64,000 bases of DNA from Flammeovirgaceae bacterium (GTDB lineage Bacteria > Bacteroidota > Bacteroidia > Cytophagales > Flammeovirgaceae). Location: NCBI GenBank assembly GCA_965225715.1, contig CBDDBK010000002.1:1324416-1388415 (forward strand), written 5' to 3'. Positions 38,511-59,445 of the stretch are shown piece after piece. The first letter of the stretch is position 1. Every line of letters starts with the position of its first letter. A model generated the notes under the pieces. It had not been told where the DNA came from and did no database searches. It was given only the letters and a program-made list of their open reading frames with translations. The translations under genes were made by a program, and so were the position numbers.

Positions 38511-40421
38511 TTAATAAATCAATAATTTACGCTCTAAAATTTTATTTCCCAAATCAATAAAAAGAATGTAAAGTCCGGAGGGTATTTTTTCGAGTTTGAA
38601 AACAGGGTTTTGTTCTGATAAGTTATTTTTCTCTAAAATTTTATTCCCATAAACCGTGTACAGCTTTATGCCTCTAACAGGCTGTTTACTTTGAATTTTG
38701 AAAAAATTACTAGCTGGATTGGGATATACCAAAATATCAGGCTCTTCCGATGTAGGATTAGGCTCTAAGGCGGTAACTATATCTAATTTTTCAAAAATAG
38801 GTCTTAACATTAGGCTACCATTTAGACTTTTGTTTTGTTGCCACTGGGAAGAGACATTAAAAAATATATTATTCCCACCTTTTGTATTCATATCAAAACC
38901 TAAAATTAAAGGTTCTTGAGACCGCTGACGTACTCCAATATAAAAAGTATCGGAAAGTATTAAGCCCGCTCCAAAACCATTATCAACTTCATATCTTTGA
39001 AAAGTATTTAACCCCTCCGAATAATTTATGGTAATGTTGCGACTAAAAAGGATTTCATCATTGGCATCGTTAAGAGCATCAATTTTTTTCCAAACGAACA
39101 AATCAAAAGTCTCTGAAGATAAATCATTTTCATTGCGAGGTAGATGAATATCTATGTGAGTTAAAGTATCCGGGTTGTCTAAAATAAAACGGTGAGCAAG
39201 GCTTCCAAAAAACACATTGACACTCACACCTGCTTCGGCAGTCCCATCATCATAACTAAAATAATCTTCCAAGATATTAAGGGATCTTAATGTATCATTG
39301 TTTTGGGTTGGAATAATAAAATTGGGAGAAGTCGGGCTATTTTCAACCGCATCAATTCTAAACTCATGTCTAATTTTAGTTGGGGCTTGTAAATTATAAA
39401 AAGGTAACCCAGTATTATTAATGGCTGAAAGTTGGGCAGATTCATTATTTAGAAGTAACACAACATTCTGACTGCTTGGTGTTTGGCTTTGGGTAAAAAG
39501 CTGAAAAATTGAAACAGTATCTTGGGTTGTTAGATCTGTTAAATGAAACCCAAGCCGAATAGGACTTGGAATAACCGGGCTTAAATTATTTAAACGTACC
39601 GTAATAGTATCTCTTAGAAAGAAAGTAGGGTCATTTTGAAAATGGTTAAAAGGAATGGCGTAATAGTTTTTAAATAAACCATTGGAGTTTCCGGATAAAG
39701 CGACATCTACCCTTTGACTCGGCTTGTCGGCAGCTGAATCATATACATAAACATAATCTATGTTCCAATGGTCAAAAGCTCCAGATTGTCGCCCATAATT
39801 TGTAAAACGAAATTGGAATCCATTGTAAAAAAAATCTGAATTATTAAGCGTAACTTCAATCCTATTAAAGGTATCTTGAAGACTTAAAGGGTTGGAACCG
39901 GAAACACTCCAAAGGTTTATCCAGAGTCCATCGATTTGTTTAATTTGAAGAATCAAAGAGTCTTCAGCATTGGGTGATTCACCTCTTCCACCTGCCTGCC
40001 ACCAAAAACTAAACACCAAAGTTTCGAGATTAGTTATATCTTCTAGAGCCAAAGGGCAAGAGGTTAACTTATCATTTAGACCAACGGCAAATGGACTATT
40101 GGTCACGTATGGCTGCCCATTTTGAAGCAAGCCATCAAAAGTAGCTATATTTGACGTAGGATGATCGCTGCTAAAACCATTATTTATGAAAACATCTTCA
40201 CTATTTTGCCATAAACTACTATCCGGTAAAATAAAACTGGTACTAAAATCATCGAAAAATGGTAGGGGTATTGTATCGCTTCCTGTTGTTCTTAATAGAT
40301 TTGGGCGGAATATTTTTGAAGGTAAAGGGTATAACATAGGTTGAGCTAAACACTTTCCAACCAAAGATAACCCCCATAACCCAAAATGAAGTTTTAAAAA
40401 TAACTTTAAAAAAGTGTTCAT
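38511..40421 (-). CDS. Secreted protein with T9SS C-terminal sorting domain, function unknown
   Basis: Signal peptide and C-terminal ILVYPNPASNFFKIQ...GLYILFI (Por secretion tail pattern). Confidence 0.65.
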   Translation of the reverse strand: MNTFLKLFLKLHFGLWGLSLVGKCLAQPMLYPLPSKIFRPNLLRTTGSDTIPLPFFDDFSTSFILPDSSLWQNSEDVFINNGFSSDHPTSNIATFDGLLQNGQPYVTNSPFAVGLNDKLTSCPLALEDITNLETLVFSFWWQAGGRGESPNAEDSLILQIKQIDGLWINLWSVSGSNPLSLQDTFNRIEVTLNNSDFFYNGFQFRFTNYGRQSGAFDHWNIDYVYVYDSAADKPSQRVDVALSGNSNGLFKNYYAIPFNHFQNDPTFFLRDTITVRLNNLSPVIPSPIRLGFHLTDLTTQDTVSIFQLFTQSQTPSSQNVVLLLNNESAQLSAINNTGLPFYNLQAPTKIRHEFRIDAVENSPTSPNFIIPTQNNDTLRSLNILEDYFSYDDGTAEAGVSVNVFFGSLAHRFILDNPDTLTHIDIHLPRNENDLSSETFDLFVWKKIDALNDANDEILFSRNITINYSEGLNTFQRYEVDNGFGAGLILSDTFYIGVRQRSQEPLILGFDMNTKGGNNIFFNVSSQWQQNKSLNGSLMLRPIFEKLDIVTALEPNPTSEEPDILVYPNPASNFFKIQSKQPVRGIKLYTVYGNKILEKNNLSEQNPVFKLEKIPSGLYILFIDLGNKILERKLLIY

Positions 40422-40680
40422 TTAAATCAATTATAAGTTACTGTAAACAATATTTTTTATGTGCTATGGATGATTATCGAATACAATTTATTTTATCTTA
40501 ATTGTAATATCATGTTTTTCTACAAAATCTTTCACAATATCTGCGATTTTAATCCAATAACTCATCTGATGCTTCATTGGTTGGCTGCCGTGTATGAATT
40601 ACTAATTTAGGGAACACTTTATTTTTGTTTTCCACCGCATAATGAATCCATATTTTATTTCCTACTTTACCACAAACTAA

Positions 40681-41274
40681 GAGCGTGTTTAGTTTTTTAT
40701 TTTAATTTTGAAAAGAGCGTCAAATTTCATAAAAGAGCACTTTAATTTTCACTTTAAATGGTGCTAGCGCTTTATGGAAAAGAAACACGTTTCTAAACAA
40801 AAAAAAACATAATGCTATAGATGACGCCCTATGGACAAAGATAGAAAGATATTTTCCTCATGCCAAACACAAGAGAAAATACAAACAAAAAGATGTTTTT
40901 AATGCTTGCTTATTTGTTACTGCCGCTAACACATATGATGGTAAAGAAGGTGTAAACTTACTCGACAAGCTACGCGGACGTATAAAAGAAAAGACTTTAT
41001 TTTGCGTTGATAAGAGTTATCGGGGTGATTTTGTTAAGGCGGTGGATTCTTTAAATTGTCCTATTGATGTTGGTCAGCCACCTCCTTCAGAGCTTGGTTT
41101 TGTACCCAGAAAGGGACGCTGGCAAGTAGAGCGGAGTTTTTCTTGGTTAAATTTTTACCGTAGATTGAGTAAATATTACGAAAAAACTGTAGAATCAGCT
41201 TTAGCATTCATTCAAATAGCATTTATTAACATCCTTTTGAACAGAATAAGGGTAAATAAAAACTAAACACGCTC
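40681..41274 (+). mobile_element. Degenerate IS5-like element (594 bp) with near-perfect terminal inverted repeats and TAA flanks
   Basis: GAGCGTGTTTAGTTTTT (40681-40697) is the reverse complement of 41258-41274, with TAA on both sides. Only transposase fragments remain, e.g. RWQVERSFSWLNFYRRLSKYYEKTVESALAFIQIAFINILLNRI (ORF 41042-41266), and upstream frames are broken. Confidence 0.7.
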
Positions 41275-41275
41275 T

Positions 41276-41322
41276 AAAGCCCCATAAACATAGCTTTGGG
41301 TTTTTGAAAACTTTGCATTCAT
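41276..41322 (-). pseudogene. 5' stump (first ~15 codons) of a fifth cadherin/beta-propeller paralog, cut at the IS boundary
   Basis: The minus strand reads ATGAATGCAAAGTTTTCAAAAACCCAAAGCTATGTTTATGGGGCT (MNAKFSKTQSYVYGA), identical to the starts of the four full genes. It is preceded by the same spacer, and homology stops within 1-2 nt of the IS end at 41274. Confidence 0.7.
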
Positions 41323-41567
41323 AAGGTTCTATTAAATTTAATATTAAAAAAATAAAATGACTTGTATATAAAGGTTTTTTGTTTTTATTTTGAGGAATGA
41401 CTTAGTTTTGTAATTCATTATAGTTCATTATTTTAAATAACACACTATCCAAAAAAAGTTAGATAAAATAGGCCGGAATAAATTTCTTTTCAAAGTAAAG
41501 AATTTGGCGATGTACCAGAGTAAGGTTTCCTCTTTTGAATACACCGCCAAGCTAAATTTTTTGTTTC

Positions 41568-43652
41568 TCAGTCTATGACCCGAAATACACTGACGCCATC
41601 ATCAATATTCCCAGATACAAAAAGATAGGTATTTCCTTCAATAACAGCCGTAGATACATCAGCAGCTCCATCCAATTCTAAAGTGGCATTATCGGAGACA
41701 TCGTCAACCGAGGTTAAAGTTCCGTCAGCAGCGACTGAAAACACACTGATGCCATCATCATCAAATCCAGCTACAAAAAGATAGGTGCTTTCCCCAATGA
41801 CTGCTGTAGATAGAGCAATAGCCCCCTCCAATTCTAAATCGGCATTATCGGAGACATCGTCAACCGAGGTTAAAGTTCCGTCAGCAGCGACTGAAAACAC
41901 ACTGACGCCATGATCAAACACCCTAGCTACAAAAAGATAAGTTGTTCCTCCAACAACTGCTGTAGATAAACCACTGGCCCCATCCAATTCTAAATCGGCA
42001 TTATCGGAGACATCGTCAACCGAGGTTAAGGTTCCATCGGCAGCGACCGAAAATACACTGACCCCATCATCAAACACCCCAGCTACAAAAAGATAGGTGC
42101 TTCCTCCAACGACTGCTGTAGATAAACCAGTGGCTCTATCCAGTTTTAAAACGGCATTGTCGGAGACATCGTCAACCGAGGTTAAGGTTCCATCAGCAGC
42201 GACCGAAAATACACTGACCCCATCATCAACACCCCCAGCTACAAAAAGATAGGTACTTTCCTCAATAACTGCTGTATACGTATAAGTAACCCCATCCAAT
42301 TCTAAAGCGGCATTGTCAGAGACATCATCAACCGAGGTTAAAGTTCCATCAGAAGCGACAGAAAATACACTGACCCCATCATCAATAAACCCAGCTACAA
42401 AAAGATAGGTTGTTCCCTCAACGACTGCTGTAGATAAACCACGGGCTCCATCCAATTTTAAATCGGTATCATCGGAGACATCGTCAGCCGAAATTAAAGT
42501 TCCATCAGAAGCGACCGAAAATACACTGGCCCCATTATCAGTATCCCCACATACAAAAAGATAAGTTGTTCCTCCAACAACTGCTGTAGATAAACCACTG
42601 GCTCCATCCAGTTGTAAAGTGGCATCATCGGAGACATCGTCAACCGAGAGCAATTGAAATGAATCTCGAACCGTAATGCTAATAGAAGTTTCAGAACGAT
42701 TGCCGTCCAAATCGAAAACTGCGACTCCCAAATCATAGAGGGCTAAAGTTTCATAATCTAAGGCATTAGAAATGAGCAAATAACCTGAATTAGAAAGGCT
42801 GAAAGCTCCTCCAACATTACCCGAAAACAAAGCATAAGAGGCAATGTCTAAGTCGTCAGTGGCTACAACTTGGCCCACTGTATCGCCAATAGCACTGAAC
42901 TCGGATATCGAAAACACACTATTCTTTATGCTCAAACTAGGCGCATCAACTACAGCAATCGTAAAAGCCATTTCAAAGGTGCCGCCGTTACCGTCGTCCG
43001 TTTGCACCCGAATAGAATGACTGGCTTGACTTTCAAAATCAAAACTTATGTTGCTTTTTAAGCTATCGCCAGAAATAATAAAATTGGCATTATTACTAGA
43101 CCCATCCCCTTCTTGGAAACTATAGGTAAAAGCCTCTGAATCCGCATCTGTGGAACTAAAAGTTCCTATCAAACTTCCAATGGGTTCATTTTCAGAAATA
43201 CTATTGGCGCTTAAAGCAATAGATATAGGATTTTCATTGGTATTGCTTACCGTTATGGTAAAAACCATCTGAAAGGTGCCGCCATTTCCATCATCCGTTT
43301 GCACCCGAATAGAGTGACTGGCTTGACTTTCAAAATCAAAACTTATGTTGCTTTTTAAACTATCCCCAGAAATACTAAAATTAGCATTATCACTAGACCC
43401 ATCCCCTTCTTGGAAACTATAGGTAAAAGCCTCTGAATCTACGTCTGTGGAACTAAAAATTCCTATCAAACTTCCAATAGGTTCATTTTCAGAAATACTA
43501 TTGGCGCTCAAAACAATAGATGTAGGAGGTGAATTCGTTTCAGATGGAGGCTCTACCACAGGGCTATCGTCACATTTTCCTGCAATGGTTAAAATAAAAA
43601 GAACCAAAGCCCCATAAACATAGCTTTGGATTTTTGAAAACTTTGCATTCAT
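41568..43652 (-). CDS. Surface lipoprotein paralog A: 3 cadherin-like domains + 7-bladed beta-propeller
   Basis: Signal peptide ending ...LTIAGKC, followed by acidic DDSP. Cadherin-like units (ANSISENEPIGSLIG...FDFESQASHSIRVQTDDGNGG). Seven ~48-aa repeats DDVSDNxxLELDGAxxxSTAVVGGxTYLFVxGxxDDGVSVFSVAxDGTLTS. Confidence 0.8.
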   Translation of the reverse strand: MNAKFSKIQSYVYGALVLFILTIAGKCDDSPVVEPPSETNSPPTSIVLSANSISENEPIGSLIGIFSSTDVDSEAFTYSFQEGDGSSDNANFSISGDSLKSNISFDFESQASHSIRVQTDDGNGGTFQMVFTITVSNTNENPISIALSANSISENEPIGSLIGTFSSTDADSEAFTYSFQEGDGSSNNANFIISGDSLKSNISFDFESQASHSIRVQTDDGNGGTFEMAFTIAVVDAPSLSIKNSVFSISEFSAIGDTVGQVVATDDLDIASYALFSGNVGGAFSLSNSGYLLISNALDYETLALYDLGVAVFDLDGNRSETSISITVRDSFQLLSVDDVSDDATLQLDGASGLSTAVVGGTTYLFVCGDTDNGASVFSVASDGTLISADDVSDDTDLKLDGARGLSTAVVEGTTYLFVAGFIDDGVSVFSVASDGTLTSVDDVSDNAALELDGVTYTYTAVIEESTYLFVAGGVDDGVSVFSVAADGTLTSVDDVSDNAVLKLDRATGLSTAVVGGSTYLFVAGVFDDGVSVFSVAADGTLTSVDDVSDNADLELDGASGLSTAVVGGTTYLFVARVFDHGVSVFSVAADGTLTSVDDVSDNADLELEGAIALSTAVIGESTYLFVAGFDDDGISVFSVAADGTLTSVDDVSDNATLELDGAADVSTAVIEGNTYLFVSGNIDDGVSVFRVID

Positions 43653-43878
43653 AAGGTTGTATTATTTAAGGTTAAAAAAATAAAATTAGTTGTATATAAA
43701 GTAGTTAAAGGTTTTTTGTTGAAAAAAAGTTAGATAAAAATAGGTTAGTATAACATAAGCAATGATAAAATTGATAAAATAGGCCGGAATAAATTTCTTT
43801 TCAAAGTAAAGAATTTGGCGATGTACCAGAGTAAGGTTTCCTCTTTTGAATACACCGCCAAGCTAAATTTTTTGTTTC

Positions 43879-45963
43879 TTAGTCTATGACCCGAAATACA
43901 CTGACGCCATCATCACCAAACCCAGCTACAAAAAGATAGGTACTTTCCCCAACAACTGCCGTAGATACAGCAATAGCTCCGTCCAATTCTAAAGTGGCAT
44001 TATCGGAGACATTGTAAATAGAGGTTAAAGTTCCATCAGAAGCGACTGAAAATACACTGACGCCATCATCATCAAACCCAGCTACAAAAAGATAGGTTGT
44101 TGCTCCAACAACTGCCGTAGATACACTGTAAGCCCCATCCAGTTGTAAAGCGGCATTGTCGGAGACATCGTCAACCGAGGTTAAAGTTCCATCAGAAGCG
44201 ACCGAAAATACACTGACGCCATCATCATCATACCCAGCTACAAAAAGATAGGTGCTTCCTCCAACAACTGCTGTAGATACATCAATAGATCCAGCCAGTT
44301 GTAAAGTGGCATTGTCGGAGACATCATCAACCGAGGTTAAAGTTCCATCAGAAGCGACCGAAAATACACTGACGCCATCATCAATATCCCCAGCTACAAA
44401 AAGATAGGTATTTCCTCCAACAACTGCCGTAGATACACTGTAAGCCCCATCCAATTCTAAAGCGGCATTATCAGAGACATCATCAACCGAGGTTAAAGTT
44501 CCATCGGCAGCGACCGAAAATACACTGACCCCATCATCGTCATACCCAGATACAAAAAGATAAGTTGTTCCCTCAACAACTGCTGTAGATACACTGTAAA
44601 CCCCATCCAATTCTAAAGTGGCATTGTCGGAGACATCATCAACCGAGGTTAAAGTTCCATCGGCAGCGACCGAAAATACACTGACGCCATCATCGTCATA
44701 CCCAGATACAAAAAGATAAGTTGTTCCTCCAATGATTGCTGTAGATAAACCACTGGCTCCATCCAATTCTAAAGTGGCATTGTCGGAGACATCGTCAGCC
44801 GAGGTTAAGGTGCCATCAGAAGCGACCGAAAATACGCTGACGCCATCATCATTATACCCAGCTACAAAAAGATAGGTGCTTCCTCCGATAACTGCCGTAG
44901 ATATAGGGAAAGCCCTCTCCAATTCTAAATTGGCATCGTCGGAGACATCGTCAACGGAGAGCAATTGAAATGAATCTCGAACCGTAATGCTAATAGAAGT
45001 TTCAGAACGATTGCCATCCAAATCGAAAACTGCGACTCCCAAATCATAGAGGGCTAAAGTTTCATAATCTAAGGCATTAGAAACGAGTAAATAACCTGAA
45101 TTAGAAAGGCTGAAAGCTCCTCCAACATTACCCGAAAACAAAGCATAAGAGGCAATGTCTAAGTCGTCAGTGGCTACAACTTGGCCCACTGTATCGCCAA
45201 TAGCACTGAACTCGGATATCGAAAACACACTATTCTTTATGCTCAAACTAGGCGCATCAACTACAGCAATCGTAAAAGCCATTTCAAAGGTGCCGCCGTT
45301 ACCGTCGTCCGTTTGCACCCGAATAGAATGACTGGCTTGACTTTCAAAATCAAAACTTATGTTGCTTTTTAAGCTATCGCCAGAAATAATAAAATTGGCA
45401 TTATTACTAGACCCATCCCCTTCTTGGAAACTATAAGTAAAAGCCTCTGAATCTACGTCTGTGGAACTAAAAGTTCCTATGAAACTTCCAATGGGTTCAT
45501 TTTCAGAAATACTATTGGCGCTTAAAGCAATAGATATAGGATTTTCATTGGTATTGCTTACCGTTATGGTAAAAACCATCTGAAAGGTGCCGCCATTTCC
45601 ATCATCCGTTTGCACCCGAATAGAGTGACTGGCTTGACTTTCAAAATCAAAACTTATGTTGCTTTTTAAACTATCCCCAGAAATACTAAAATTAGCATTA
45701 TCACTAGACCCATCCCCTTCTTGGAAACTATAGGTAAAAGCCTCTGAATCTACATCGGTGGAACTAAAAATTCCTATCAAACTTCCAATAGGTTCATTTT
45801 CAGAAATACTATTGGCGCTCAAAACAATAGATGTAGGAGGTGAATTCGTTTCAGATGGAGGCTCTACCACAGGGGTATCGTCACATTTTCCTGCAATGGT
45901 TAAAATAAAAAGAACCAAAGCCCCATAAACATAGCTTTGGGTTTTTGAAAACTTTGCATTCAT
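43879..45963 (-). CDS. Surface lipoprotein paralog B: 3 cadherin-like domains + 7-bladed beta-propeller
   Basis: Same architecture as paralog A. I count about five substitutions versus A in the first ~340 residues, with many in the propeller half. Confidence 0.8.
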   Translation of the reverse strand: MNAKFSKTQSYVYGALVLFILTIAGKCDDTPVVEPPSETNSPPTSIVLSANSISENEPIGSLIGIFSSTDVDSEAFTYSFQEGDGSSDNANFSISGDSLKSNISFDFESQASHSIRVQTDDGNGGTFQMVFTITVSNTNENPISIALSANSISENEPIGSFIGTFSSTDVDSEAFTYSFQEGDGSSNNANFIISGDSLKSNISFDFESQASHSIRVQTDDGNGGTFEMAFTIAVVDAPSLSIKNSVFSISEFSAIGDTVGQVVATDDLDIASYALFSGNVGGAFSLSNSGYLLVSNALDYETLALYDLGVAVFDLDGNRSETSISITVRDSFQLLSVDDVSDDANLELERAFPISTAVIGGSTYLFVAGYNDDGVSVFSVASDGTLTSADDVSDNATLELDGASGLSTAIIGGTTYLFVSGYDDDGVSVFSVAADGTLTSVDDVSDNATLELDGVYSVSTAVVEGTTYLFVSGYDDDGVSVFSVAADGTLTSVDDVSDNAALELDGAYSVSTAVVGGNTYLFVAGDIDDGVSVFSVASDGTLTSVDDVSDNATLQLAGSIDVSTAVVGGSTYLFVAGYDDDGVSVFSVASDGTLTSVDDVSDNAALQLDGAYSVSTAVVGATTYLFVAGFDDDGVSVFSVASDGTLTSIYNVSDNATLELDGAIAVSTAVVGESTYLFVAGFGDDGVSVFRVID

Positions 45964-46208
45964 AAGGTTATGTTAAATTTAATATTAAAAAAATAAAATG
46001 AGTTGTATATAAAGGTTTTTTGTTTTTATTTTGAGGAATGACTTCCTTTTGTAATTCATTATAGTTCATTATTTTAAATAACACACTATCCAAAAAAAGT
46101 TAGATAAAATAGGCTGGAATAAATTTCTTTTCAAAGTAAAGAATTTGGCGATGTACCAGAGTAAGGTTTCCTCTTTTGAATACACCGCCAAGCTAAATTT
46201 TTTGTTTC

Positions 46209-48293
46209 TCAGTCTATGACCCGAAATACACTGACCCCATCATCATTAAACCCAGCTACAAAAAGATAGGTATTTCCTTCAATAACAGCCGTAGACACAT
46301 CGGCAATTCCATCCAATTCTAAAGTGGCATTATCGGAGACATTGTAAATAGAGGTTAAGGTGCCATCAGAAGCGACCGAAAATACACTGACCCCATTATC
46401 ACTAAATCCAGCTACAAAAAGATAGGTGCTTTCTCCAACAACTGCTGTAGATACACTGTAAGCCCCATTCAATTCTAAATCAGCATCGTCAGAGACATCA
46501 TCAACCGAGGTTAACGTTCCGTCAGCAGCGACTGAAAACACACTGAAGCCATCATCAATATTCCCAGCTACAAAAAGATAGGTGCTTCCTCCAACAACTG
46601 CTGTAGATACAGCGAAAGCCCCATCCAATTCTAAATCAGCATCGTCGGAGACATCATCAACCGAGGTTAAAGTTCCATCGGAAGTAATCGAAAATACACT
46701 GACGCCATCATCATTACGCCCAGCCACAAAAAGATAGGTGTTTCCCCCAACAACTGCCGTAGATAAACCAATAGCCCCATCCAATTCTAAAGCGGCATTA
46801 TCAGAGACAGTGTCAACCGAGGTTAAAGTTCCATCAGCAGCGACCGAAAATACACTGACCCCATCATCTAACTCTCCAGTTACAAAAAGATAGGTTGTTC
46901 CTCCAACAACTGCTGTAGATAAACCACTGGCTCCATCCAATTCTAAATCGGCATTGTCAGAGACATCGTCAACCGAGGTTAAGGTTCCATCGGCAGCGAC
47001 CGAAAATACACTGACGCCATCATCGTCATACCCAGTTACAAAAAGATAGGTTGTTCCTCCAATAACTGCTGTAGATACATCAGCAGCTCCATCCAATTCT
47101 AAAGTGGCATTGTCGGAGACATCGTCAACCGAGGTTAAGGTGCCATCAGAAGCGACCGAAAATACACTGACCCCATCATCATTATACCCAGTTACAAAAA
47201 GATAGGTTGTTCCTCCAACAACTGCTGTAGATAAACCACTGGCTCCATCCAATTCTAAATCGGCATTGTCAGAGACATCGTCAACCGAGAGCAATTGGAA
47301 TGAATCTCGAACCATAATGCTAATAGAAGTTTCAAAACGATTGCCATTTGGATCAAAAACTGCGACTCCCAAATCATAGAGGGCTAAAGTTTCATAATCT
47401 AAGGCATTAGAAACGAGTAAATAACCTGAATTAGAAAGGCTGAAAGCTCCTCCAACATTACCCGAAAACAAAGCATAAGAGGCAATGTCTAAGTCGTCAG
47501 TGGCTACAACTTGACCCGCTGTATCGCCAATAGCACTGAACTCGGATATCGAAAACACACTATTCTTTATGCTCAAATTAGGGACATCAAGGACAGTAAT
47601 GGTAAAAACCATTTGAAAAGTGCCGCCATTGCCATCGTCCGTTTGCACCCGAATAGAATGACTGGCTTGACTTTCAAAATCAAAACGTATGTTGCTTTTT
47701 AGACTATCCCCAGAAATACTAAAATTGGCATTATCATCAGCCCCATCTCCTTCTTGGAAACTATAAGTAAAAGCCTCTGAATCTACGTCTGTGGAATTAA
47801 AAGTTCCTATGAAACTTCCAATGGGTTCATTTTCAGAAATACTATTGGCGCTTAAAGCAATAGATATAGGATTTTCATTGGTATTGCTTACCGTTATGGT
47901 AAAAACCATCTGAAAGGTGCCGCCATTTCCATCGTCCGTTTGCACCCGAATAGAATGACTGGCTTGACCTTCAAAATCGAAACTTATGTTGCTTTTTAGA
48001 CTATCGCCAGAAATACTAAAATTGGCATTATCACTAGACCCATCCCCTTCTTGGAAACTATAGGTAAAAGCCTCTGAATCCGCATCTGTGGAACTAAAAG
48101 TTCCTATCAAACTTCCAACGGGTTCATTTTCAGAAATACTATCGGCACTTATAGCTAAAGCTGTTGGAGGTGAATTCGTTTCAGATGGAGGCTCTACCAC
48201 AGGGCTATCGTCACATTTTCCTGCAATGGTTAAAATAAAAAGAACCAAAGCCCCATAAACATAGCTTTGGATTTTTGAAAACTTTGCATTCAT
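46209..48293 (-). CDS. Surface lipoprotein paralog C: 3 cadherin-like domains + 7-bladed beta-propeller
   Basis: Same architecture. It shares variant blocks (QEGDGADDNANFSISGD, TVLDVPNLSIKN) with paralog D rather than with A or B. Confidence 0.8.
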   Translation of the reverse strand: MNAKFSKIQSYVYGALVLFILTIAGKCDDSPVVEPPSETNSPPTALAISADSISENEPVGSLIGTFSSTDADSEAFTYSFQEGDGSSDNANFSISGDSLKSNISFDFEGQASHSIRVQTDDGNGGTFQMVFTITVSNTNENPISIALSANSISENEPIGSFIGTFNSTDVDSEAFTYSFQEGDGADDNANFSISGDSLKSNIRFDFESQASHSIRVQTDDGNGGTFQMVFTITVLDVPNLSIKNSVFSISEFSAIGDTAGQVVATDDLDIASYALFSGNVGGAFSLSNSGYLLVSNALDYETLALYDLGVAVFDPNGNRFETSISIMVRDSFQLLSVDDVSDNADLELDGASGLSTAVVGGTTYLFVTGYNDDGVSVFSVASDGTLTSVDDVSDNATLELDGAADVSTAVIGGTTYLFVTGYDDDGVSVFSVAADGTLTSVDDVSDNADLELDGASGLSTAVVGGTTYLFVTGELDDGVSVFSVAADGTLTSVDTVSDNAALELDGAIGLSTAVVGGNTYLFVAGRNDDGVSVFSITSDGTLTSVDDVSDDADLELDGAFAVSTAVVGGSTYLFVAGNIDDGFSVFSVAADGTLTSVDDVSDDADLELNGAYSVSTAVVGESTYLFVAGFSDNGVSVFSVASDGTLTSIYNVSDNATLELDGIADVSTAVIEGNTYLFVAGFNDDGVSVFRVID

Positions 48294-48538
48294 AAGGTTC
48301 TATTAAATTTAATATTAAAAAAATAAAATGAGTTGTATATAAAGGTTTTTTGTTTTTATTTTGAGGAATGACTTCCTTTTGTAATTCATTATAGTTCATT
48401 ATTTTAAATAACACACTATCCAAAAAAAGTTAGATAAAATAGGCTGGAATAAATTTCTTTTCAAAGTAAAGAATTTGGCGATGTACCAGAGTAAGGTTTC
48501 CTCTTTTGAATACACCGCCAAGCTAAATTTTTTGTTTC

Positions 48539-50623
48539 TTAGTCTATGACCCGAAATACACTAACGCCATCATCAACAAACCCAGTTACAAAAAGATAGG
48601 TGCTTTCCCCAACGACTGCCGTAGATACATCAGCAGCTCCATCCAATTCTAAAGCGGCATTATCGGAGACATTGTAAATAGAGGTTAAGGTGCCATCAGA
48701 AGCGACCGAAAATACACTGACCCCATCATCAAAAAACCCAGCTACAAAAAGATAGGTGCTCCCTCCGACAATTGCCGTAGATACACTGTAAGCCCCATCC
48801 AGTTGTAAAGCGGCATTGTCAGAAACATCATCAACCGAGGTTAAAGTTCCATCAGCAGCGACCGAAAATACACTGACGCCATCATCATCAAATCCAGTCA
48901 CAAAAAGATAGGTGCTTCCTCCAACGACTGCTGTAGATAAACCAAAGGCCCCATCCAATTCTAAAGCGGCATTGTCGGAGACATCGTCAACCGAGGTTAA
49001 AGTTCCATCGGAAGCGACCGAAAATACACTGACGCCATCATCAGTATCCCCAGCTACAAAAAGATAGGTGTTTCCCCCAACAACTGCTGTCGATAAACCA
49101 ATAGCCCCATCCAATTCTAAATCAGCATCGTCGGAGACATCGTCAGCCGAGGTTAAAGTTCCGTCATCAGCAACCGAAAATACGCTGATACCATCATCAT
49201 TAAGTCCAGTCACAAAAAGATAGGTTGTTCCTCCAACAACTGCTGTAGATACAGCGAAAGCCCCATCCAATTCTAAATCGGCATCATCGGAGACGTTGTC
49301 AGCCGAGGTTAAGTTTCCATCGGCAGCGACCGAAAATACGCTGACGCCATCATCAACAAACCCAGCTACAAAAAGATAGGTTGTTCCCTTAACGACTGCT
49401 GTAGATAAACCATTAGCTCCATCCAATTCTAAAGTGGCATTGTCGGAGACATGGTCAGCCGAGGTTAAAGTTCCATCAGAAGCGACCGAAAATACACTGA
49501 CCCCATCATCATCAGACCCAGCTACAAAAAGATAGGTTGTTCCCTCAACGACTGCTGTAGATATAGGGAAAGCCCCATCCAATTCTAAATTGGCATCATC
49601 GGAGACATCGTCAACCGAGAGCAATTGAAATGAATCTCGAACCGTAATGCTAATAGAAGTTTCAGAACGATTGCCATCCAAATCGAAAACCGCCAGCCCC
49701 AAATCATAGAGGGCTAAAGTTTCATAATCTAAGGCATTAGAAACGAGTAAATAACCTGAATTAGAAAGGCTGAAAGCTCCTCCGACATTACCTGAAAATA
49801 AAGCATAAGAGGCAATGTCTAAGTCGTCAGTGGCTACAACTTGACCCACTGTATCGCCAATAGCACTGAACTCGGATATCGAAAACACACTATTCTTTAT
49901 GCTCAAATTAGGGACATCAAGGACAGTAATGGTAAAAACCATTTGAAAAGTGCCGCCATTGCCATCGTCCGTTTGCACCCGAATAGAATGACTGGCTTGA
50001 CCTTCAAAATCAAAACTTATGTTGATTTTTAGACTATCCCCAGAAATACTAAAATTGGCATTATCATCAGCCCCATCTCCTTCTTGGAAACTATAAGTAA
50101 AAGCCTCTGAATCTACGTCTGTGGAATTAAAAGTTCCTATCAAACTTCCAATGGGTTCATTTTCAGAAATACTATTGGCGCTTAACGCAATAGACGTAGG
50201 AGCTTCATTGGTATTGCTTACCGTTATGGTAAAAACCATCTGAAAGGTGCCGCCATTTCCATCATCAGTTTGCACCCGAATAGAATGACTGGCTTGACTT
50301 TCAAAATCAAAACTTATGTTGCTTTTTAAGCTATCGCCAGAAATACTAAAATTGGCATGATCAGTATCGCCTTCACCGGATACTAAACTGTAGGTAAAAG
50401 CCTCTGAATCTACATCGGTGGAACTAAAAGTTCCTATCAAACTTCCAACGGGTTCATTTTCAGAAATACTATTGGCGCTCAAAACAATAGCTGTTGGAGG
50501 TGAATTTGTTTCAGATGGAGGCTCTACCACAGGGCTATCGTCACATTTTCCTGCAATGGTTAAAATAAAAAGAACCAAAGCCCCATAAACATAGCTTTGG
50601 ATTTTTGAAAAGTTTGCATTCAT
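48539..50623 (-). CDS. Surface lipoprotein paralog D: 3 cadherin-like domains + 7-bladed beta-propeller
   Basis: Same architecture, with a unique first-cadherin variant YSLVSGEGDTDHANFSISGD. It is the first gene of the array in the transcription direction. Confidence 0.8.
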   Translation of the reverse strand: MNANFSKIQSYVYGALVLFILTIAGKCDDSPVVEPPSETNSPPTAIVLSANSISENEPVGSLIGTFSSTDVDSEAFTYSLVSGEGDTDHANFSISGDSLKSNISFDFESQASHSIRVQTDDGNGGTFQMVFTITVSNTNEAPTSIALSANSISENEPIGSLIGTFNSTDVDSEAFTYSFQEGDGADDNANFSISGDSLKINISFDFEGQASHSIRVQTDDGNGGTFQMVFTITVLDVPNLSIKNSVFSISEFSAIGDTVGQVVATDDLDIASYALFSGNVGGAFSLSNSGYLLVSNALDYETLALYDLGLAVFDLDGNRSETSISITVRDSFQLLSVDDVSDDANLELDGAFPISTAVVEGTTYLFVAGSDDDGVSVFSVASDGTLTSADHVSDNATLELDGANGLSTAVVKGTTYLFVAGFVDDGVSVFSVAADGNLTSADNVSDDADLELDGAFAVSTAVVGGTTYLFVTGLNDDGISVFSVADDGTLTSADDVSDDADLELDGAIGLSTAVVGGNTYLFVAGDTDDGVSVFSVASDGTLTSVDDVSDNAALELDGAFGLSTAVVGGSTYLFVTGFDDDGVSVFSVAADGTLTSVDDVSDNAALQLDGAYSVSTAIVGGSTYLFVAGFFDDGVSVFSVASDGTLTSIYNVSDNAALELDGAADVSTAVVGESTYLFVTGFVDDGVSVFRVID

Positions 50624-51023
50624 AAGGTTATGTTAAATTTAATATTAAAAAAATAAAATGAGTTGTATATAAAGGTTTTTTGTTTTTATTTTGAGGAATG
50701 ACTTCCTTTTGTAATTTAGAAGATTTTGAATAACCTATTTTTGTCCAAAATTAAAAAAATATGAAATGCTCATTTATTATAGATCGTCGCTTTGGTGGTA
50801 ACAAATCACACAAAAATAAAGTTAGATTAAAAAGGTACTTTTATAGCAAAGCTATTTTATTTTGCGAAACGGTCTGTTTCAAAATGAATAAATTAGAAGC
50901 CTAAAAAATCTTTTTTTAAGTAATTTGAGTATAAAAGATATTACTCCATAATTCTATCCCTAAAACTTTAGTTATTACAAATGAGTTAAAACTTTAATTT
51001 TTTTTTAAATAAAGTAACTATAA

Positions 51024-54000
51024 TTAATTAACCTCCACCCATTGGCCTTCTGTTTTGGCGTATATGGTATTATCGTACATATCTTCTACTAAAATAGCAG
51101 GTAAATAATAACGCCCTTTAAAACTTGTATTAACTTGAACCCCAAATATTTTTGTTTTGCCTTTGCCGAGTTTAAAATAAGTTAATACCCTGTCGTCTCG
51201 AATGTCTTGATAGTCAAAATTTTGCTTTGATGAGCCAGATGACTTATTTAAACGGGTGTTTAATATTTCCCATCCCGAAGGAAAAATTTGGGTAAGCGCT
51301 AGATTTTGATAAGACTTAAGACCTTTATGGGTAACAGCTATTGCAGCGATTAAATCAGTGCCTGGAGCGACTTTTTTGGGATCTATAGGTTTATTATTAC
51401 TGTCAAAATAAGCGACTTTAATTGCCAGGCCCTGACTAGAAGCTTTATTTAAATTTTCTAACGCTTTGCCTCTTTGGATAATGCGAAGGTAGACGATACC
51501 TTTTCCTTTATTTTTAACATATAATTTTCCTTCAGGAGAAACTGACTGACGTACAATTTGAAAGGTTGAGTTTATATTTTGTACTTGCCCTTTTTCTTTA
51601 AGCTCAACCTGAATATGGGTGTTTGTTTTGGTATTAATAAGAAATTTGGAAGTTGCCAACAAAGCATAAGCCATTTCCTGTGTGTTGAGCCAACGTTCTT
51701 TAGAAAGTGTTTCATTAATGTTGTTTGCCAAGGTGAAAGCCTGTGTTTTATTGCCTAATAGGGTTAATGTTTCTAAAATCATAGCTGATTCTCTCAAAGG
51801 TGTGCTGTAATGATATTCAAAATGCTGAGTAGGCTGTGGACTTTCTGAACTAATATTTTTAATAATGCTTTCGGCTATTGATTTTTGACCTATCAAAGCA
51901 TAAGCAGCTGCCAGTCGCCATTTGGAAAGCGGGTTTTTAGGGTTGGATTCTTTGAATCGATTCATGAGTCCTAAAGGTCTCCCACCAGCCAATGCTAACG
52001 TGAATAAGCGGTAAGCCTGAACAAAATCATCGTTGTAACCGACTTTATTTTTTTGCCATATATTGGCTTGTTGTCTTTGAAATTTTTGCCATTTTTTCAA
52101 AACGCGCTTATTTACTGTGTATCCTTTATTTTTACATTCTATCATGAAATGGCCTGCATAATTGGTTAACCAATAATTGAATTGGCTATTACCTGTCCAT
52201 AAGGTAAAAGCCCCCTCACCTGTCTGAAAAGCAATTATCTTTTTAAGGGCTTCTTTAATATTATTTTCGATCTTAATTTTCTGTTTTTTGTCCAGTTCTA
52301 CCAACTCTCCGACATAAAGTTGAGGAAAGGCTTTGCTGATAGTTTGTTCCAAACAACCATGTGGATAATTGATAAGATAGTTGAGTCGATGTTCGATTTT
52401 GGCAGATTTTAAGGTGCTGAATTCTACAACAGCGCTGTTTGTACCGGCTGTACCAAAGGCCTGTAAATCGTAATTAAACTCTTCACCTACCATTAAAATT
52501 TTATCGTAGAGTTTGGTAGATAGAGGGTTAGGATTGCGACTTTGGATTTCAATTTCATGAGTTGCTTTTCCTTTATTGCTTTCGGCTTCTATATAGATTT
52601 TTCCATGACCTTCTTGCTTCATGACCTCTAAATTAAAATCTATAAACTTATCGCCAATTTCCTGAATATTAATCGTTTTAGAAGCACTACCTTCAAGTTT
52701 TACAACTCCATCTGTTTTTACGTTTATGCGTACATTTCCAAGGTTTGCTTCGGTTGCCAATAAGGAGACGGGCAATTTAACCTTTTCGCCCGGTCCAAGC
52801 ACACGAGGTAAAGACCCTAAAACCATTAAAGGCTGTCGGACAGGGACTGTTTTCTCAGAACTTCCATAACGCGAATCATAGCCTGATACGATCATTGCCC
52901 GAACGGAACCAATATAAGCCGGTAACTTGAACGTATGTTTTTTAGTTTGGTTTTTATCGAGAAAAAAAGGACCTAAATAAATAGCTACTGGCTTGAAACG
53001 ATTTGGTTTAGGTTTTTTATTTTTCTCATAATAATCACTTCCTCCAATTGCTAAAAGCCGATCTATTTGTCCTCCAAAAGCTCCGATAACATCACTATAT
53101 AAATCCCAAGTTTTTACGCCTAAACCTTCTTTAGAATAAAAATAGGACCAAGGATCAGGTGTTTTGTAATTGGTTAAATCTAAAAGACCTTCATCTACTA
53201 TAGCAATAGAATAAGCCATTGCTTGTCCATTTTTTTCCTTAACATTTAAAACAACTTCGCTGGAAGGTTGTAACTCTTGAGGCAATGAAATTTCGGGATA
53301 AAGTTTGGTATTTTCATCTATGACATCTATACCTCTAATGCCATAAAGACGTATAGGTAGATTATTTTCGGTTTGTGCATGAGGCTGAATAAGCGTTGTA
53401 TTAATATAAATATTGGGCGTCATGTCAGCTGTTGCTTTGAGGTTAATTTTGGTGTTGGTTTTTTTGGTATCTACCCAAAATTTATCAATAATTTTAGATC
53501 CATTTTCTATTGATACCAGAGCTTTCCCTACTTGAGTACTCGGAATGAGTAATTCTATATTTTCTCCGACTTTATATGATTTTTTATCAGTTTCTATACT
53601 TAGAAAAGCAGAACCCAATCCTTTTTTGCTTTTAGATGCCCAGCCCGGCCAGTCCATATAGATGACTTTCCCAGAACAGTGCCCGCCTTCATCACAAACT
53701 TTGACATAGTAGCGTCCCCAATCGGGATAATTAATCTTAAAATCAACTGATCCAAGACCATTAATGGTAGAAACTTTAGAGGTGAAAACCTTTTTGCGAA
53801 GTTCCGAACCTACGTAATTAGCTTTGTTGTTTGATTGATCCCACCACCATTTCCATGTCATTTTATAAACAGTTACCGAAATATTTTTTCGATTAACTTT
53901 TTGTCCATCAGTGTTTAGAGTAACTATATTGATTTTGTGATTTTTATCGGTCAAAAGCATACCTCTACTGTCGCCTTCGGGCAGGGTTAAACCGACATAA

Positions 54001-56680: not shown

Positions 56681-57280
56681 TTAGATATGAGGTTTAATAC
56701 TAAAATCAAATATCTTTTCTAAGTTAAACTCAAGGTCTTGAAACAAGAATGATTTTAACCGTTCATCTTCAGAAAACGATTTTGCTACATAGTATTTGCC
56801 TTCTTGATTCAAAGAATGGAGGATAACTAACTTTTCAATTGGATAAACTATCCAATATTCTTTTATTTTAGCTTCTTGGTAAAGGTAAAACTTATCGTGA
56901 AGGTCTGTTTTTGAATTATTTGGAGATAAAATTTCCACTACCAGATCGGGGGCTCCGATGGCGCCTCTTATGTCTATTTTGCTGTCATCACAAATCACAC
57001 ATAGATCAGGTTGCACGACGGTATGTAACTTATTGCCTTTAGGAATAGGTAAGCGAACATCGAAAGGCGCTGCGAATATTTGACAAGGTCGATCTTCAAG
57101 ACAATATATAAATCGAGATGTTAAGAGTGATGATATTGACTGATGCCGACTTGATGGGGCAGCCATCTTAAAAATTTTGCCTTTGAGCAACTCTACGCGC
57201 TCTTCAAATTTCCAAGACAAATAATCCGTATAGGTGTACAGCTTATCAAGATTTAGCTGATTGAATTGAGTAATTTCCAT
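56681..57280 (-). CDS. Uma2 (DUF820) family putative endonuclease, paralog 1
   Basis: YTDYLSWKFEERVELLKGKIFKMAAPSSRHQ, VQPDLCV and GAPDLVVEILSPNNSKTDLHDKFYLYQEAKIKEYWIV match the PD-(D/E)xK Uma2 pattern. Confidence 0.8.
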   Translation of the reverse strand: MEITQFNQLNLDKLYTYTDYLSWKFEERVELLKGKIFKMAAPSSRHQSISSLLTSRFIYCLEDRPCQIFAAPFDVRLPIPKGNKLHTVVQPDLCVICDDSKIDIRGAIGAPDLVVEILSPNNSKTDLHDKFYLYQEAKIKEYWIVYPIEKLVILHSLNQEGKYYVAKSFSEDERLKSFLFQDLEFNLEKIFDFSIKPHI

Positions 57281-57623
57281 AATTTATGCTCTATTAATAT
57301 ATTCAATTTATTGATTATCAGTATTATATCATTTAAATAAACAATGAAAAATAATTAATATTTTGATGATTAATTTTGTGGACATGGTCATTTACTTTTG
57401 GTTATACTCAAATTACTTAAAAAAAATATTTTTTCGGATTCCAACTTATTAATATTGAAAACCAACGTTTCGCAAAATAAAATAGCTTTGTTATAATTAG
57501 GAACTAAACTTGTTTTAGGTTTTTTATTGAAATTACCCAAACCTAACTAAAAAGGCAGAGAATGAAATAAAAAATTAGCTTGTTAAGGTTTGCCACTCAA
57601 TTTTTTGGAGCATCTATTTTTGA

Positions 57624-58160
57624 TCAAGTATTTTTAAAATCATCTTCGGTATATGCACTTGCGCCTTCATCAATGTTACTTTTAGCTATTCTGTAATCTT
57701 TGCCAGTTGTTGCTAGTTTAAAATCAGTGAGTTTACATTGTAAATCAGTAAGCTCGTCGACTTTTCTACTTATTTCACTTACTCCAATTATATTATCCTC
57801 AACTTGTGCTTCAATGTTTTTAGCTTTTTTATACAAATTGAGATAACCGTTGGCTGCTTTTACGTATTCATGCCAAAGGTCTTTATTTTTTGCTTTCAAT
57901 AGGTAAACGCTTATCCCAATTCCGAATAGAGATAACGCTCCAATGGCTATTTGGGAAAAATAAAAGGCAACACTTGATAGGGTTGCTACACTTATTACAA
58001 CTGAAATAATTTCTAAGTTATTGCGTTTAGATTCTAAATTCATTTCCTTGGCTTTAACTCTTTCGGCTGCTGCAAAAAATAAATTTTTTGAATAGGCAAA
58101 ATCCACTCTTAATTCCTGAAGACGCTTGTAAATATTGCTGTTTTTTGCTTCGTTTTCCAT
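57624..58160 (-). CDS. Two-TM effector-like protein (SLATT-like: SMODS and SLOG-associating 2TM)
   Basis: 178 aa: a helical N-terminus, two adjacent TM helices (IISVVISVATLSSVAFYF and IAIGALSLFGIGISVYLL) and a helical C-terminus. It starts 17 nt after the upstream nucleotidyltransferase gene on the same strand. Confidence 0.55.
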   Translation of the reverse strand: MENEAKNSNIYKRLQELRVDFAYSKNLFFAAAERVKAKEMNLESKRNNLEIISVVISVATLSSVAFYFSQIAIGALSLFGIGISVYLLKAKNKDLWHEYVKAANGYLNLYKKAKNIEAQVEDNIIGVSEISRKVDELTDLQCKLTDFKLATTGKDYRIAKSNIDEGASAYTEDDFKNT

Positions 58161-58177
58161 AGGGCATTTAAATTAAT

Positions 58178-58927
58178 TTATTTTGGGAAATCATTTCCAA
58201 ATAGTGTTTCTCTACAGTATTTGCCAAAGGTATCATCAGTCATGATTTTTAATTCTTGTAACTTATTTGAATCAAACCATTTGTAAATTTCAAATAATCT
58301 TGTAACTCCTTGACGATAAGAATCGATAGGTCCAAGTCGTTCTATCGCTAGAATTTCCATTTCAAAAGAGGGGAGTTTTGCCCATTTATTTATTTGTTTA
58401 CATCGTTTCATCATTTTGATTAATGGGACAAGCATTGGATTTTTTTTGTTTGCTTGGGTAAGATATTCTCTAAGCCTGTCTGGGTCTTCAATACATTTCC
58501 AAGCCTTTAAATCAGAGCTTGGAATCTTATAACATTTAACATCTGAAATATCATTTTCTAGTGCTGGTGTAAGCTCAAATTTGCAGTGTTTAAAATCAAG
58601 AACTACGCATGGTTTGTCTTGTCTAATTGCTGTATTGGAATACCTACTACGTAAATCCTTTTTTAACTTGTTGAAAACAGATTGAGGTGTTGGATTATCA
58701 GGTTCATGATATAGATAATCCATGATGACGAAAATATCAACATCATTCATTGGTCTAATTATTGTCTTTCTTTTATATGAACCTGTTAGTATAGTATTCA
58801 TGACATAGTCTAATTTTTGGAGTATATCCTGGCGCAAGTGTTTATGGGAATTAATCACTTTTTTTATCTCATTATCAGTTGGTTCAATAGCTTGTTTGAA
58901 TGTTTCAAACTTGGTTTGTAGACTCAT
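58178..58927 (-). CDS. SMODS/CD-NTase-like minimal nucleotidyltransferase
   Basis: Pol-beta-fold signature TGSYKRKTIIRPMNDVDIFV (GS...DxD, encoded around 58736-58783), a third acidic site in CVVLDFKHCKFELTPAL, then a helical C-terminal half. 249 aa. Confidence 0.6.
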   Translation of the reverse strand: MSLQTKFETFKQAIEPTDNEIKKVINSHKHLRQDILQKLDYVMNTILTGSYKRKTIIRPMNDVDIFVIMDYLYHEPDNPTPQSVFNKLKKDLRSRYSNTAIRQDKPCVVLDFKHCKFELTPALENDISDVKCYKIPSSDLKAWKCIEDPDRLREYLTQANKKNPMLVPLIKMMKRCKQINKWAKLPSFEMEILAIERLGPIDSYRQGVTRLFEIYKWFDSNKLQELKIMTDDTFGKYCRETLFGNDFPK

Positions 58928-59162
58928 GTCTTCAATTTTTTATGCTGTAAGTTTAAATAATGTTTGTAAAAAACTATTTTTCAATGCAAATTTAAAATAA
59001 CACAAAATTACCAAATCTAACCAAAAAAACGATGAAGAGCAACTCAAAAAAAGAGTTAGTTTTTCTTATAATAAAGTGCTACTTTTGCTGATTTGATGTA
59101 ATTTTGATTCAAGTTTTTTATTTAAAAAGTTGATTATAATAGTTTTATAAATTTATAAAAAA

Positions 59163-59438
59163 TCATTCACAGTTCATTGTTTTAGAGACTTTCTGTTTCA
59201 ATGTTTGTTGATTAGCCAACTCATACAGATATTCCGGGGCGAAATCAGCCCCATTTGACCATTCAATTGTGTTGTAGGGAATTGTAAAAGTTTTAAAATA
59301 GGAAACAACTTTTAGGGCTTCAAATACTTTTCCTTTAAGTTCGTATTCAAGATTGACTATTTTATACTTGCCATTGTTGAAATGTAATTCCAACTCATAG
59401 CCTTTGATGTATTTTGCCTTGATAATTTCCAAAAACAT
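59163..59438 (-). CDS. DUF2442 domain protein
   Basis: YELELHFNNGKYKIVNLE...WSNGADFAPEYLYEL. 7-nt gap after the DUF4160 gene. Confidence 0.75.
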   Translation of the reverse strand: MFLEIIKAKYIKGYELELHFNNGKYKIVNLEYELKGKVFEALKVVSYFKTFTIPYNTIEWSNGADFAPEYLYELANQQTLKQKVSKTMNCE

Positions 59439-59445
59439 AATTATA

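Follow-up and report, generated by a model that had tools for sequence, protein, structure and literature searches.

A tandem array of cadherin and beta-propeller genes with mosaic propellers and hypervariable blade positions in a Flammeovirgaceae bacterium

Organization of the array

We analyzed a 64,000-nt stretch of the genome of a Flammeovirgaceae bacterium (contig CBDDBK010000002.1), hereafter called the window. It carries an array of paralogous genes whose products combine cadherin domains with a beta-propeller. Four open reading frames (ORFs), designated A to D, were found head-to-tail on the minus strand (41568-50623). Each encodes 694 aa (2085 bp with the stop codon), and the start-to-start distances are 2311, 2330, and 2330 bp. 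The ORFs confirmed an earlier reading made from the letters of the window (the sequence-only reading), which had reported four minus-strand genes of equal length at this spacing. Repetition in the array is nested at three levels, namely 156-nt blades, 297-nt cadherin repeats, and 2.3-kb gene units. The coordinates are summarized in Table 1.

Table 1 Features of the array and of the related insertion elements in the window.
Feature	Position	Strand	Description
Gene D	48539-50623	-	First in the transcription direction; 694 aa; ORF, Pfam, and AlphaFold2
Gene C	46209-48293	-	694-aa paralogue; 90.7% nt identity with D
Gene B	43879-45963	-	694-aa paralogue; codons 1-340 98.7% identical to A
Gene A	41568-43652	-	694-aa paralogue; most divergent propeller, with 79 private sites
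Fifth gene copy, first 47 nt only	41276-41322	-	Match to ATGAATGCAAAGTTTTCAAAAA; ends where the insertion sequence (IS) remnant begins
Upstream (promoter-side) segment of gene D	50624-50716	-	93 nt, 100% identical to the spacer; left end of the repeat unit in the transcription direction
D-C spacer, 245 nt	48294-48538	-	Hairpin (48475-48521), T-rich tract, then the conserved upstream region of the next gene
C-B spacer, 245 nt	45964-46208	-	Equivalent of the D-C spacer
B-A spacer, 226 nt	43653-43878	-	Divergent spacer, middle rearranged
Spacer between A and the fifth copy, 245 nt	41323-41567	-	Equivalent of the D-C spacer
Propeller-coding part of D	48539-49633	-	Seven 156-nt repeats; direct-repeat family at 156-nt spacing
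Propeller-coding part of C	46209-47303	-	As in D
Propeller-coding part of B	43879-44973	-	As in D
Propeller-coding part of A	41568-42662	-	As in D
IS5-like remnant, 596 bp	40680-41275		Perfect 18-bp terminal inverted repeats (40680-40697 and 41258-41275); abuts the fifth copy
IS5-like remnants or miniature inverted-repeat transposable elements (MITEs) sharing AGAGCGTGTTTAGTTTTT	40680-41275; 12189-12420; 3226-3243; 32582-32599		Terminal-repeat matches

The start motif ATGAATGCAAAGTTTTCAAAAA was present five times, and the fifth ATG (41322) lies 2330 bp from that of A. Sequence of the fifth copy was searched for downstream, beyond the IS remnant, and none was found. On this evidence, the array is what is left of at least five units, four of them intact and one destroyed by the IS. 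The truncated copy, which runs from 41322 to 41276, explains why the sequence-only reading had placed the left limit of the array at 41276. Its right limit is explained by the homology to the repeat unit upstream of D, which stops 93 nt before the ATG, at 50716. The interval 41276-50716 thus marks the limits of the repeated DNA. The truncated copy was absent from that reading, as were the hypervariable triad of blade positions common to the family and the 297-nt repeat of cadherin domains 1 and 2, both described below.

The IS remnant holds a plus-strand ORF (41042-41266) with the C-terminal end RWQVERSFSWLNFYRRLSKYYE, which we take to be the C-terminus of an IS5-type transposase (no Pfam profile confirmed it). 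Assignment of the 596-bp element to a transposase is based on the terminal repeats and this recognized motif. The terminal repeat AGAGCGTGTTTAGTTTTT had six matches in the window at two or fewer mismatches, with 0 expected. One of the elements that share it, 232 bp in length, is a MITE related to both ends of the 596-bp remnant.

Metagenome assembly is prone to error in repeat arrays, and the array might consist of strain variants of one gene stitched in tandem. We regard such an artefact as extremely improbable. The coding sequences of A to D are 88.1-91.2% identical at the nucleotide level in pairs, and 184-248 nt differ between any two of them. Unique junctions are present at both ends of the array, one of them being the IS boundary, and one spacer is structurally different from the others. 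In the NCBI/ENA record, all four proteins are encoded on a single 1,419,133-bp contig.

The GC content of the array is 40-41%, with strong negative GC skew (41000-50700), and that elsewhere in the window is 26-36%. Recent horizontal transfer of the array was considered and rejected, as the GC excess is confined to codon positions 1 and 2 and the GC content at the third position is barely raised (0.30-0.32 in the array and 0.26 in the pooled neighbouring genes, range 0.20-0.31). The excess thus mostly reflects amino-acid composition (repeats rich in Gly, Asp, Val, Ala, and Ser) and is not evidence of recent transfer.

The spacers are conserved and that between A and B is divergent, as had been read from the sequence. 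The three 245-nt spacers differ at 2-5 aligned positions. A 47-nt hairpin is identical at four sites (41504-41550, 43815-43861, 46145-46191, and 48475-48521). It folds with a 13-bp outer stem and sits after each stop codon, followed by a T-rich tract, and the two together form a probable terminator. The spacer hairpin went unreported in a strict terminator scan because its loop is longer than 8 nt. The region of approximately 90 nt preceding each ATG, including that of D, is conserved and may act as a promoter. No match was found in an Rfam scan of the window. As each unit has its own upstream region and terminator-like hairpin, each gene is probably its own transcription unit, and the copies are probably expressed independently.

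Domain architecture and predicted location of the proteins

The proteins A to D consist, in order, of a hydrophobic leader or signal peptide, Cys27, a Pro-rich linker, three cadherin domains, and a seven-bladed propeller (aa 331-694). Pfam Cadherin (PF00028) matched three stretches per protein with scores of 71.9-73.9 bits (73.9 in D; gathering cut-off 28.8). Matches of the cadherin part in the PDB by sequence were CELSR1, cadherin-23, and protocadherins, and Foldseek returned cadherin and protocadherin ectodomains. As read from the sequence, the linker between domains 1 and 2 (SNTNENP) is similar to the Ca2+ motif DxNDNxP, and that between domains 2 and 3 (VVDAPS or VLDVPN) is degenerate. Cadherin domains 1 and 2 form a 297-nt tandem repeat with 83-88% nucleotide identity (about 49886-50497 in D). 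Domain 1 of D carries a private patch, YSLVSGEGDTDH, that fits the consensus of family members outside the array; it may be a relic of the ancestral sequence or the result of conversion by an unlinked paralogue.

The propeller was matched by PF10282 (Lactonase, 7-bladed) at 46.4-48 bits in A to D (48 in D; cut-off 21.7). One blade comprises 52 aa, and there are seven per protein, starting from residue 331. The AlphaFold2 model of the full-length protein (alignment of 19 family members) had a predicted local distance difference test score (pLDDT) of 87.2. For the propeller alone (14 sequences), pLDDT was 95.9 and the predicted template-modelling score (pTM) was 0.93. The modelled propeller has 28 strands arranged as seven four-stranded blades, with strands at blade positions 4-11, 21-29, 32-39, and 44-50, and its N-terminal strand closes the last blade (3+1 closure). 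The Pfam scores and the strand count agree with the architecture of three cadherin domains plus seven blades that had been proposed from the sequence. A precomputed label, PF27112, was discarded as a faint YrzR_Zn_ribbon match that is not meaningful.

In the Foldseek search with the propeller head, the best match was the EPTP domain of LGI1 (PDB 5y2z, 9kzc), with a TM score of 0.78-0.85. LGI1 EPTP is likewise a seven-bladed extracellular propeller, one that binds protein; at 8-10% identity, the similarity is at the level of the fold only and no homology is claimed. Structures of the lactonase family came next (3hfq and 1ri6 at 19-20% identity, and 19-22% with 6igb included), of which 3hfq and 1ri6 are the best with real sequence similarity.

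The PF10282 match above the gathering score, together with weak similarity to YbhE/Pgl (1ri6), 3hfq, and PpgL, could mean that A to D are surface-tethered enzymes, such as lactonase or 6-phosphogluconolactonase-like hydrolases, whose paralogues differ in substrate range. We consider this quite improbable. NCBIfam NF008258 (6-phosphogluconolactonase) matched a partial stretch, a point in favour of an enzyme; at 39.6 bits against a cut-off of 370, the proteins fall outside this equivalog. The blades within a protein are near copies of each other (median aa identity 71-75%, up to 90%), leaving no room for a differentiated active site, and differentiation between blades is confined to the hypervariable residues. 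The propeller module is also fused to adhesin-type domains (cadherin, FG-GAP/VCBS, RTX, and immunoglobulin (Ig)) in hundreds of proteins.

The leader ends in LTIAGKC and is followed by DD(S/T)PVVEPPSETNSPPT, a segment that is disordered in the AlphaFold2 model. This agrees with the sequence-only reading, which had described a leader ending in Cys and then acidic CDD(S/T)P. That reading had further taken the proteins for lipoproteins and likened the acidic residues to a surface-export signal, a claim for which the support proved weaker than proposed. Cys27, which comes straight after the hydrophobic core of the leader, is kept in 90% or more of the 19 family members aligned, and the lipobox Cys of canonical members falls at the same alignment position. 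In close homologues, the lipobox reads SG[KEN]C, and distant or spirochaete-type members have canonical VGC or LGC. In A to D, the residue at −1 is Lys, which fails the PROSITE pattern PS51257; four other ORFs in the window pass it (LSSC, LISC, YSC, and FSC), among them that of an alpha-2-macroglobulin. The tested export signals of Bacteroidota are C-X-K-(D/E)2, SDDDD, and SDDFE, and their position is critical (PMC5080379). In A to D, the acidic pair of C-D-D-S/T-P is shifted to +2/+3 (approximately +3 to +5 in the tested signals) and no polar or Lys residue precedes it, so that the resemblance is partial.

No match to the sorting domain of the type IX secretion system (T9SS; PF18962/TIGR04183, Por_Secre_tail) was found in A to D, which end with the last propeller strand. 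The same domain was matched in the products of two neighbouring genes (38511-40421 and 32816-35539). Taken together, A to D are likely secreted and tethered at the N terminus, as judged from their leaders, and lipidation at Cys27 is plausible.

Mosaic divergence and hypervariable blade positions

Divergence among the copies is uneven along the genes. In codons 1-340 (the 5' 1020 nt), A and B differ at 13 nt (5 aa), and the other pairs differ at 57-73 nt (93-94% identity). The propeller halves of A to D are 84-88% identical. The sequence-only reading had called the first 340 or so codons almost invariant, which is true of A and B and not of the other pairs. It had also described blocks shared by A and B and by C and D. 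Among the four genes, 96 sites divide the copies two against two. The first 1000 nt contain 34 of these sites, and 32 of them support AB|CD, as described. The propeller departs from this description, with the partitions AC|BD, AD|BC, and AB|CD all present in alternating clustered blocks.

For four sequences, any two different partitions clash with a single tree. Neighbouring informative sites were concordant in 68 cases, as compared with 36.0±4.4 expected, and none of 20000 permutations reached 68. In the propeller alone, there were 39 concordant neighbours against 21.8±3.5 in the permutations. Between A and B, the synonymous divergence (dS) rises from 0.039 in the cadherin part to 0.288 in the propeller. 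Duplication at one date cannot yield such uneven values, which supports the reading of a mosaic formed by gene conversion. The paralogues are a recombinational mosaic, and the clustering of sites and the uneven dS bear out the mosaic typical of gene conversion that had been noted from the sequence. The homogenized parts of the unit are the leader, the stalk, and the spacers. Concerted evolution, as had been proposed for the whole array, may describe the spacers and the 5' half of the genes, whereas the propellers have diverged and traded blades; in the strict sense, the term would require paralogues to resemble each other more than their orthologues.

The 28 blades share 66-94% nucleotide identity. 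Blades at the same position in different paralogues are 86.3% identical, and those at different positions are 81.5% identical within a paralogue and 81.2% between paralogues. As same-position blades are the closest, the seven-blade gene was duplicated as a whole. Some blades have their nearest relative out of register, such as A5 with C3 (92%) and B4 with D6 and B6 (92%). A 21-nt segment covering blade positions 19-25 is base-identical in A1/B2/C1/C3, in A7/C2/D7, in B4/B6/D6, and in C5/D3.

Amino-acid variation between the paralogues is centred on blade positions 15, 22-24, and 40-41; positions 30-32 and 38 vary to a smaller extent. Positions 15, 22-24, 40, and 41, six of the 52, hold 43% of the amino-acid differences between the propellers of the paralogues. 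To avoid circularity, the variable positions were defined on other genomes, using 55 homologues in which five or more blades were clean. In this set, blade entropy within proteins peaked at positions 22, 41, and 40 (approximately 2 bits), followed by 1.4 bits at the next position. The triad 22/40/41 is distinct in all 28 blades of A to D. The ratio of nonsynonymous to synonymous differences (pN/pS) among A to D was 1.10 in the triad (21 codons), 0.36 in the remaining propeller, 0.30 in the cadherin part, and 0.19 in the propeller framework (excluding 11 variable positions chosen on A to D). As far as the sequences tell, this shows that a fixed set of positions, the triad, is under strongly relaxed or diversifying selection.

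Position 22 opens the innermost strand, just past the long D-A loop, and positions 40-41 are in the B-C loop after the second strand. Judged from this strand order, the 21 triad residues, with seven-fold repetition, would lie on one "top" face around the central channel. Propellers usually bind their ligands on this face.

A recent neutral tandem duplication, in which the copies are redundant and the loop positions merely unconstrained, would agree with a triad pN/pS that is about 1 and not clearly higher, with the loss of one copy to the IS, and with the single dispersed genes that represent the family elsewhere. This explanation is unlikely in our view. The four ORFs have remained intact at a propeller dS of 0.24-0.32, with a framework pN/pS of 0.19. 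Moreover, the same three positions vary in the 55 homologues, which span phyla, and the 28 triads of the array all differ. The genome also retains the relatives P0013, P0019, P0020, and P0089 on the same contig.

The variation might instead serve evasion of phage, predators, or host immunity, with the array as an antigenic-variation store from which possibly one copy is expressed at once. The mosaic structure, the cassette-like sharing of loop segments, the confinement of variation to exposed loops, and the nearby defence genes and mobile elements would fit this. All four copies keep the upstream region, the start codon, the leader, and the terminator hairpin, so no copy looks like a silent cassette. 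A search for the repeats of an invertible promoter gave only weak AT-rich matches, and no invertase, recombinase, or reverse transcriptase family was matched by the 23 other ORFs in the window that were scanned, each 100 aa or longer (12 shorter ORFs were unscanned). We hold evasion to be an unlikely role for the array. A diversity-generating retroelement was rejected on the same scan, which yielded no reverse transcriptase family among these 23 ORFs.

Relatives, precedents, and interpretation

Several relatives of A to D are encoded on the same contig. P0020 (701 aa) has the same architecture and 54% identity. P0013 and P0019 (approximately 900 aa each) have four Pfam cadherin domains; the propeller of P0013 spans residues 526-894, and P0019 gave partial blade matches. 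P0089 (630 aa) shares the leader and linker and is 60% identical to D over the leader and cadherin part, with the highest identity in cadherins 1-2, and it carries a Kelch propeller head. This "head swap" on a common stalk indicates that the stalk-plus-head design is modular in this genome.

The sequence-only reading had not recognized the architecture as a described family. It is not an orphan: cadherin repeats with the same propeller were found in approximately 15 other assemblies, uncultured Bacteroidota-like and spirochaete genomes among them, where those inspected are single dispersed genes, and repetitive lactonase-like propellers have been catalogued (PMC9218822). Two of the relatives, P0047 and P0056, have canonical lipoboxes and share a contig bearing flaA, suggesting that the contig is from a spirochaete. 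In another genome, a pair of proteins with three cadherin domains and a propeller (P0031 and P0033; GKC leader) are 93% identical and encoded on one 753-kb contig. Many of the differences between them are at blade loop positions. This pair suggests that similar recent duplications may have occurred in other lineages.

The propeller module alone is widespread: at E ≤ 0.001, the matches comprise 2687 representatives of 50%-identity clusters, and at E ≤ 1e-30 there are 533. Across phyla, identity with the query is often in the range of 55-67%, and none of these matches has a functional name. The module is fused to FG-GAP/VCBS, RTX, Ig, and T9SS domains and occurs in multiple copies in proteins of 3000-5000 residues. 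A scan with protein D of GTDB representative genomes, a collection that lacks the source genome, gave only two distant propeller proteins, one from an alphaproteobacterium and one from a metagenome-assembled genome of Spirochaetia. In JGI metagenome contigs, a profile of the last cadherin domain and the junction matched 41 loci, all generic cadherin without propeller at 45% identity or less, and no array was found. The valyl-tRNA synthetase encoded in the window is at most 65% identical to any database sequence and approximately 60% identical to those of Fulvivirga, Rapidithrix, and Cyclobacteriaceae. Together with the T9SS cargo genes near the array and the low GC content outside it, this identifies the source as an uncultured and probably small-genome member of the Bacteroidota that is Cytophagales-like.

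The surroundings of the array are rich in genes for surface proteins. Directly upstream is the alpha-2-macroglobulin gene (51024-56543, minus strand; 1839 aa), whose product has a complete complement of MG, bait-region, and TED domains together with the canonical lipobox LFSC. The T9SS cargo encoded at 32816-35539 (plus strand) has many leucine-rich repeats, Ig domains, a cadherin-like stretch, and Por_Secre_tail, and in that encoded at 38511-40421 (minus strand) the sorting domain is the sole recognizable part. A defence-type cluster occupies 56681-63851. It includes an oligonucleotide cyclase gene resembling those of cyclic-oligonucleotide-based anti-phage signalling systems (58178-58927; PADLOC Cyclase, 1e-36), next to which a 2TM effector was weakly matched (57624-58160). 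The cluster further holds a pair of Uma2/PDC-S03 paralogues whose N termini are nearly identical (56681-57280 and 59807-60388) and a type II/III-like methyltransferase (62331-63851), and a Type ISP restriction-modification enzyme is encoded at 4469-7732.

The components of the array have precedents. Highly repetitive beta-propellers, with blades near-identical at the protein and DNA levels, have been described, and two lactonase-like families are listed among them (Pereira & Lupas 2022, PMC9218822). The propellers of A to D share with these the near-copy blades (66-94% at the nucleotide level) and the PF10282 match. They differ in the fixed variable triad across the family, the fusion to a cadherin stalk, and the tandem arrangement. 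The WRAP propellers of that study are independent amplifications, whereas the array combines whole-gene duplication (86% against 81% blade identity) with superimposed blade exchange.

In fungi, the WD40 repeats of the HNWD and HET-E/D/R NOD-like receptors (NLRs) have very high internal conservation, recombine frequently within and between paralogues, and determine recognition specificity (Chevanne et al. 2010, PMC2873952). A conserved framework with variable positions in recombining propeller repeats is common to both systems. The HNWD repeats belong to cytoplasmic eukaryotic STAND proteins, and their instability has been shown experimentally. The array, known from sequence alone, is bacterial, presumably extracellular, and fixed at seven blades.

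As compared with bacterial cadherin-repeat adhesins, A to D have a similar extended extracellular stalk of PF00028 domains, whose acidic linker motifs (SNTNENP, DxD) recall Ca2+ sites. Their stalk is short (three repeats), a propeller head takes the place of more repeats, and anchoring would involve the Cys-containing N-terminal leader instead of type I secretion, T9SS, or autotransporter signals. Lp49 of Leptospira is a lipoprotein with an N-terminal Ig-like domain and a lactonase-type seven-bladed propeller thought to bind protein. In contrast to A to D, it has differentiated blades, one Ig-like domain in place of three cadherin domains, and no tandem array. Lp49 was not among the top 50 Foldseek matches listed. 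As a surface antigen, it is cited in PMC9218822. Repetitive lactonase-like propellers, repeat diversification by recombination (HNWD), cadherin stalks, and gene-converting arrays of paralogues are thus known already. In the literature searched, the cadherin-propeller family, the fixed triad on a consensus-like blade, and a bacterial tandem expansion with blade exchange appear undescribed.

We consider it fairly probable that A to D form a diversifying family, or small repertoire, of secreted, N-terminally tethered surface binding proteins in which the specificity of the head is varied. Surface binding proteins maintained as an array had also been the proposal of the sequence-only reading. It remains the best reading: the anatomy of the array, the fold of its products, the mosaic, and the sites of variation are established, and surface location, lipid anchor, binding function, and independent expression are our inference from the sequences. 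Each protein would consist of a flexible Pro-rich linker, a stalk of three cadherins, and a C-terminal propeller head of near-identical blades. Purifying selection would hold the blade framework and leave three positions per blade free, giving 21 residues in seven-fold arrangement. The array would have grown by duplication of whole units. Gene conversion or crossing-over would maintain the similarity of leader, stalk, and spacers, and the variable loops would be reshuffled as blades and copies swap blade segments. The heads may thereby differ in the surface ligand that they recognize, be it on a host, prey, particle, or polymer.

Several points weigh against this proposal. The lipobox I-A-G-K-C, with its Lys at −1, means that the anchor may differ or be absent. 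A promoter scan of the window, which used the sigma-70 consensus only and left Bacteroidota promoters unmodelled, gave nothing above chance. The triad pN/pS of approximately 1.1 fits relaxed constraint as well and is no proof of positive selection, and recombination breaks the assumptions of the simple pairwise pN/pS estimate. Placement of the triad on one face is deduced from the strand topology of the model. The collections searched yielded neither a related strain nor an orthologous array in which turnover could be followed directly.

A bolder reading, which we put forward tentatively as a possibility, is that the 52-residue blade is a natural consensus scaffold that bacteria of different phyla use as a programmable binder outside the cell. 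Its specificities, carried by 21 variable residues on one face of seven near-constant blades, would be generated rapidly by shuffling of 156-nt blades within a gene and between tandem genes, and the array would be an instance of this process under way. By analogy, such a system might, equally tentatively, be a bacterial extracellular counterpart of the fungal NLR repeats with high internal conservation or of the variable lymphocyte receptors of lampreys.

The locus opens no new category of biology, as each component has a precedent. The pattern of a framework plus a triad could interest protein engineers as a natural repeat scaffold. If the proposed binding role is correct, three positions per blade would define a precise candidate binding surface common to a large uncharacterized propeller family. 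The locus would then show how an uncultured, probably small-genome lineage of Bacteroidota diversifies a surface recognition head through nested repetition.

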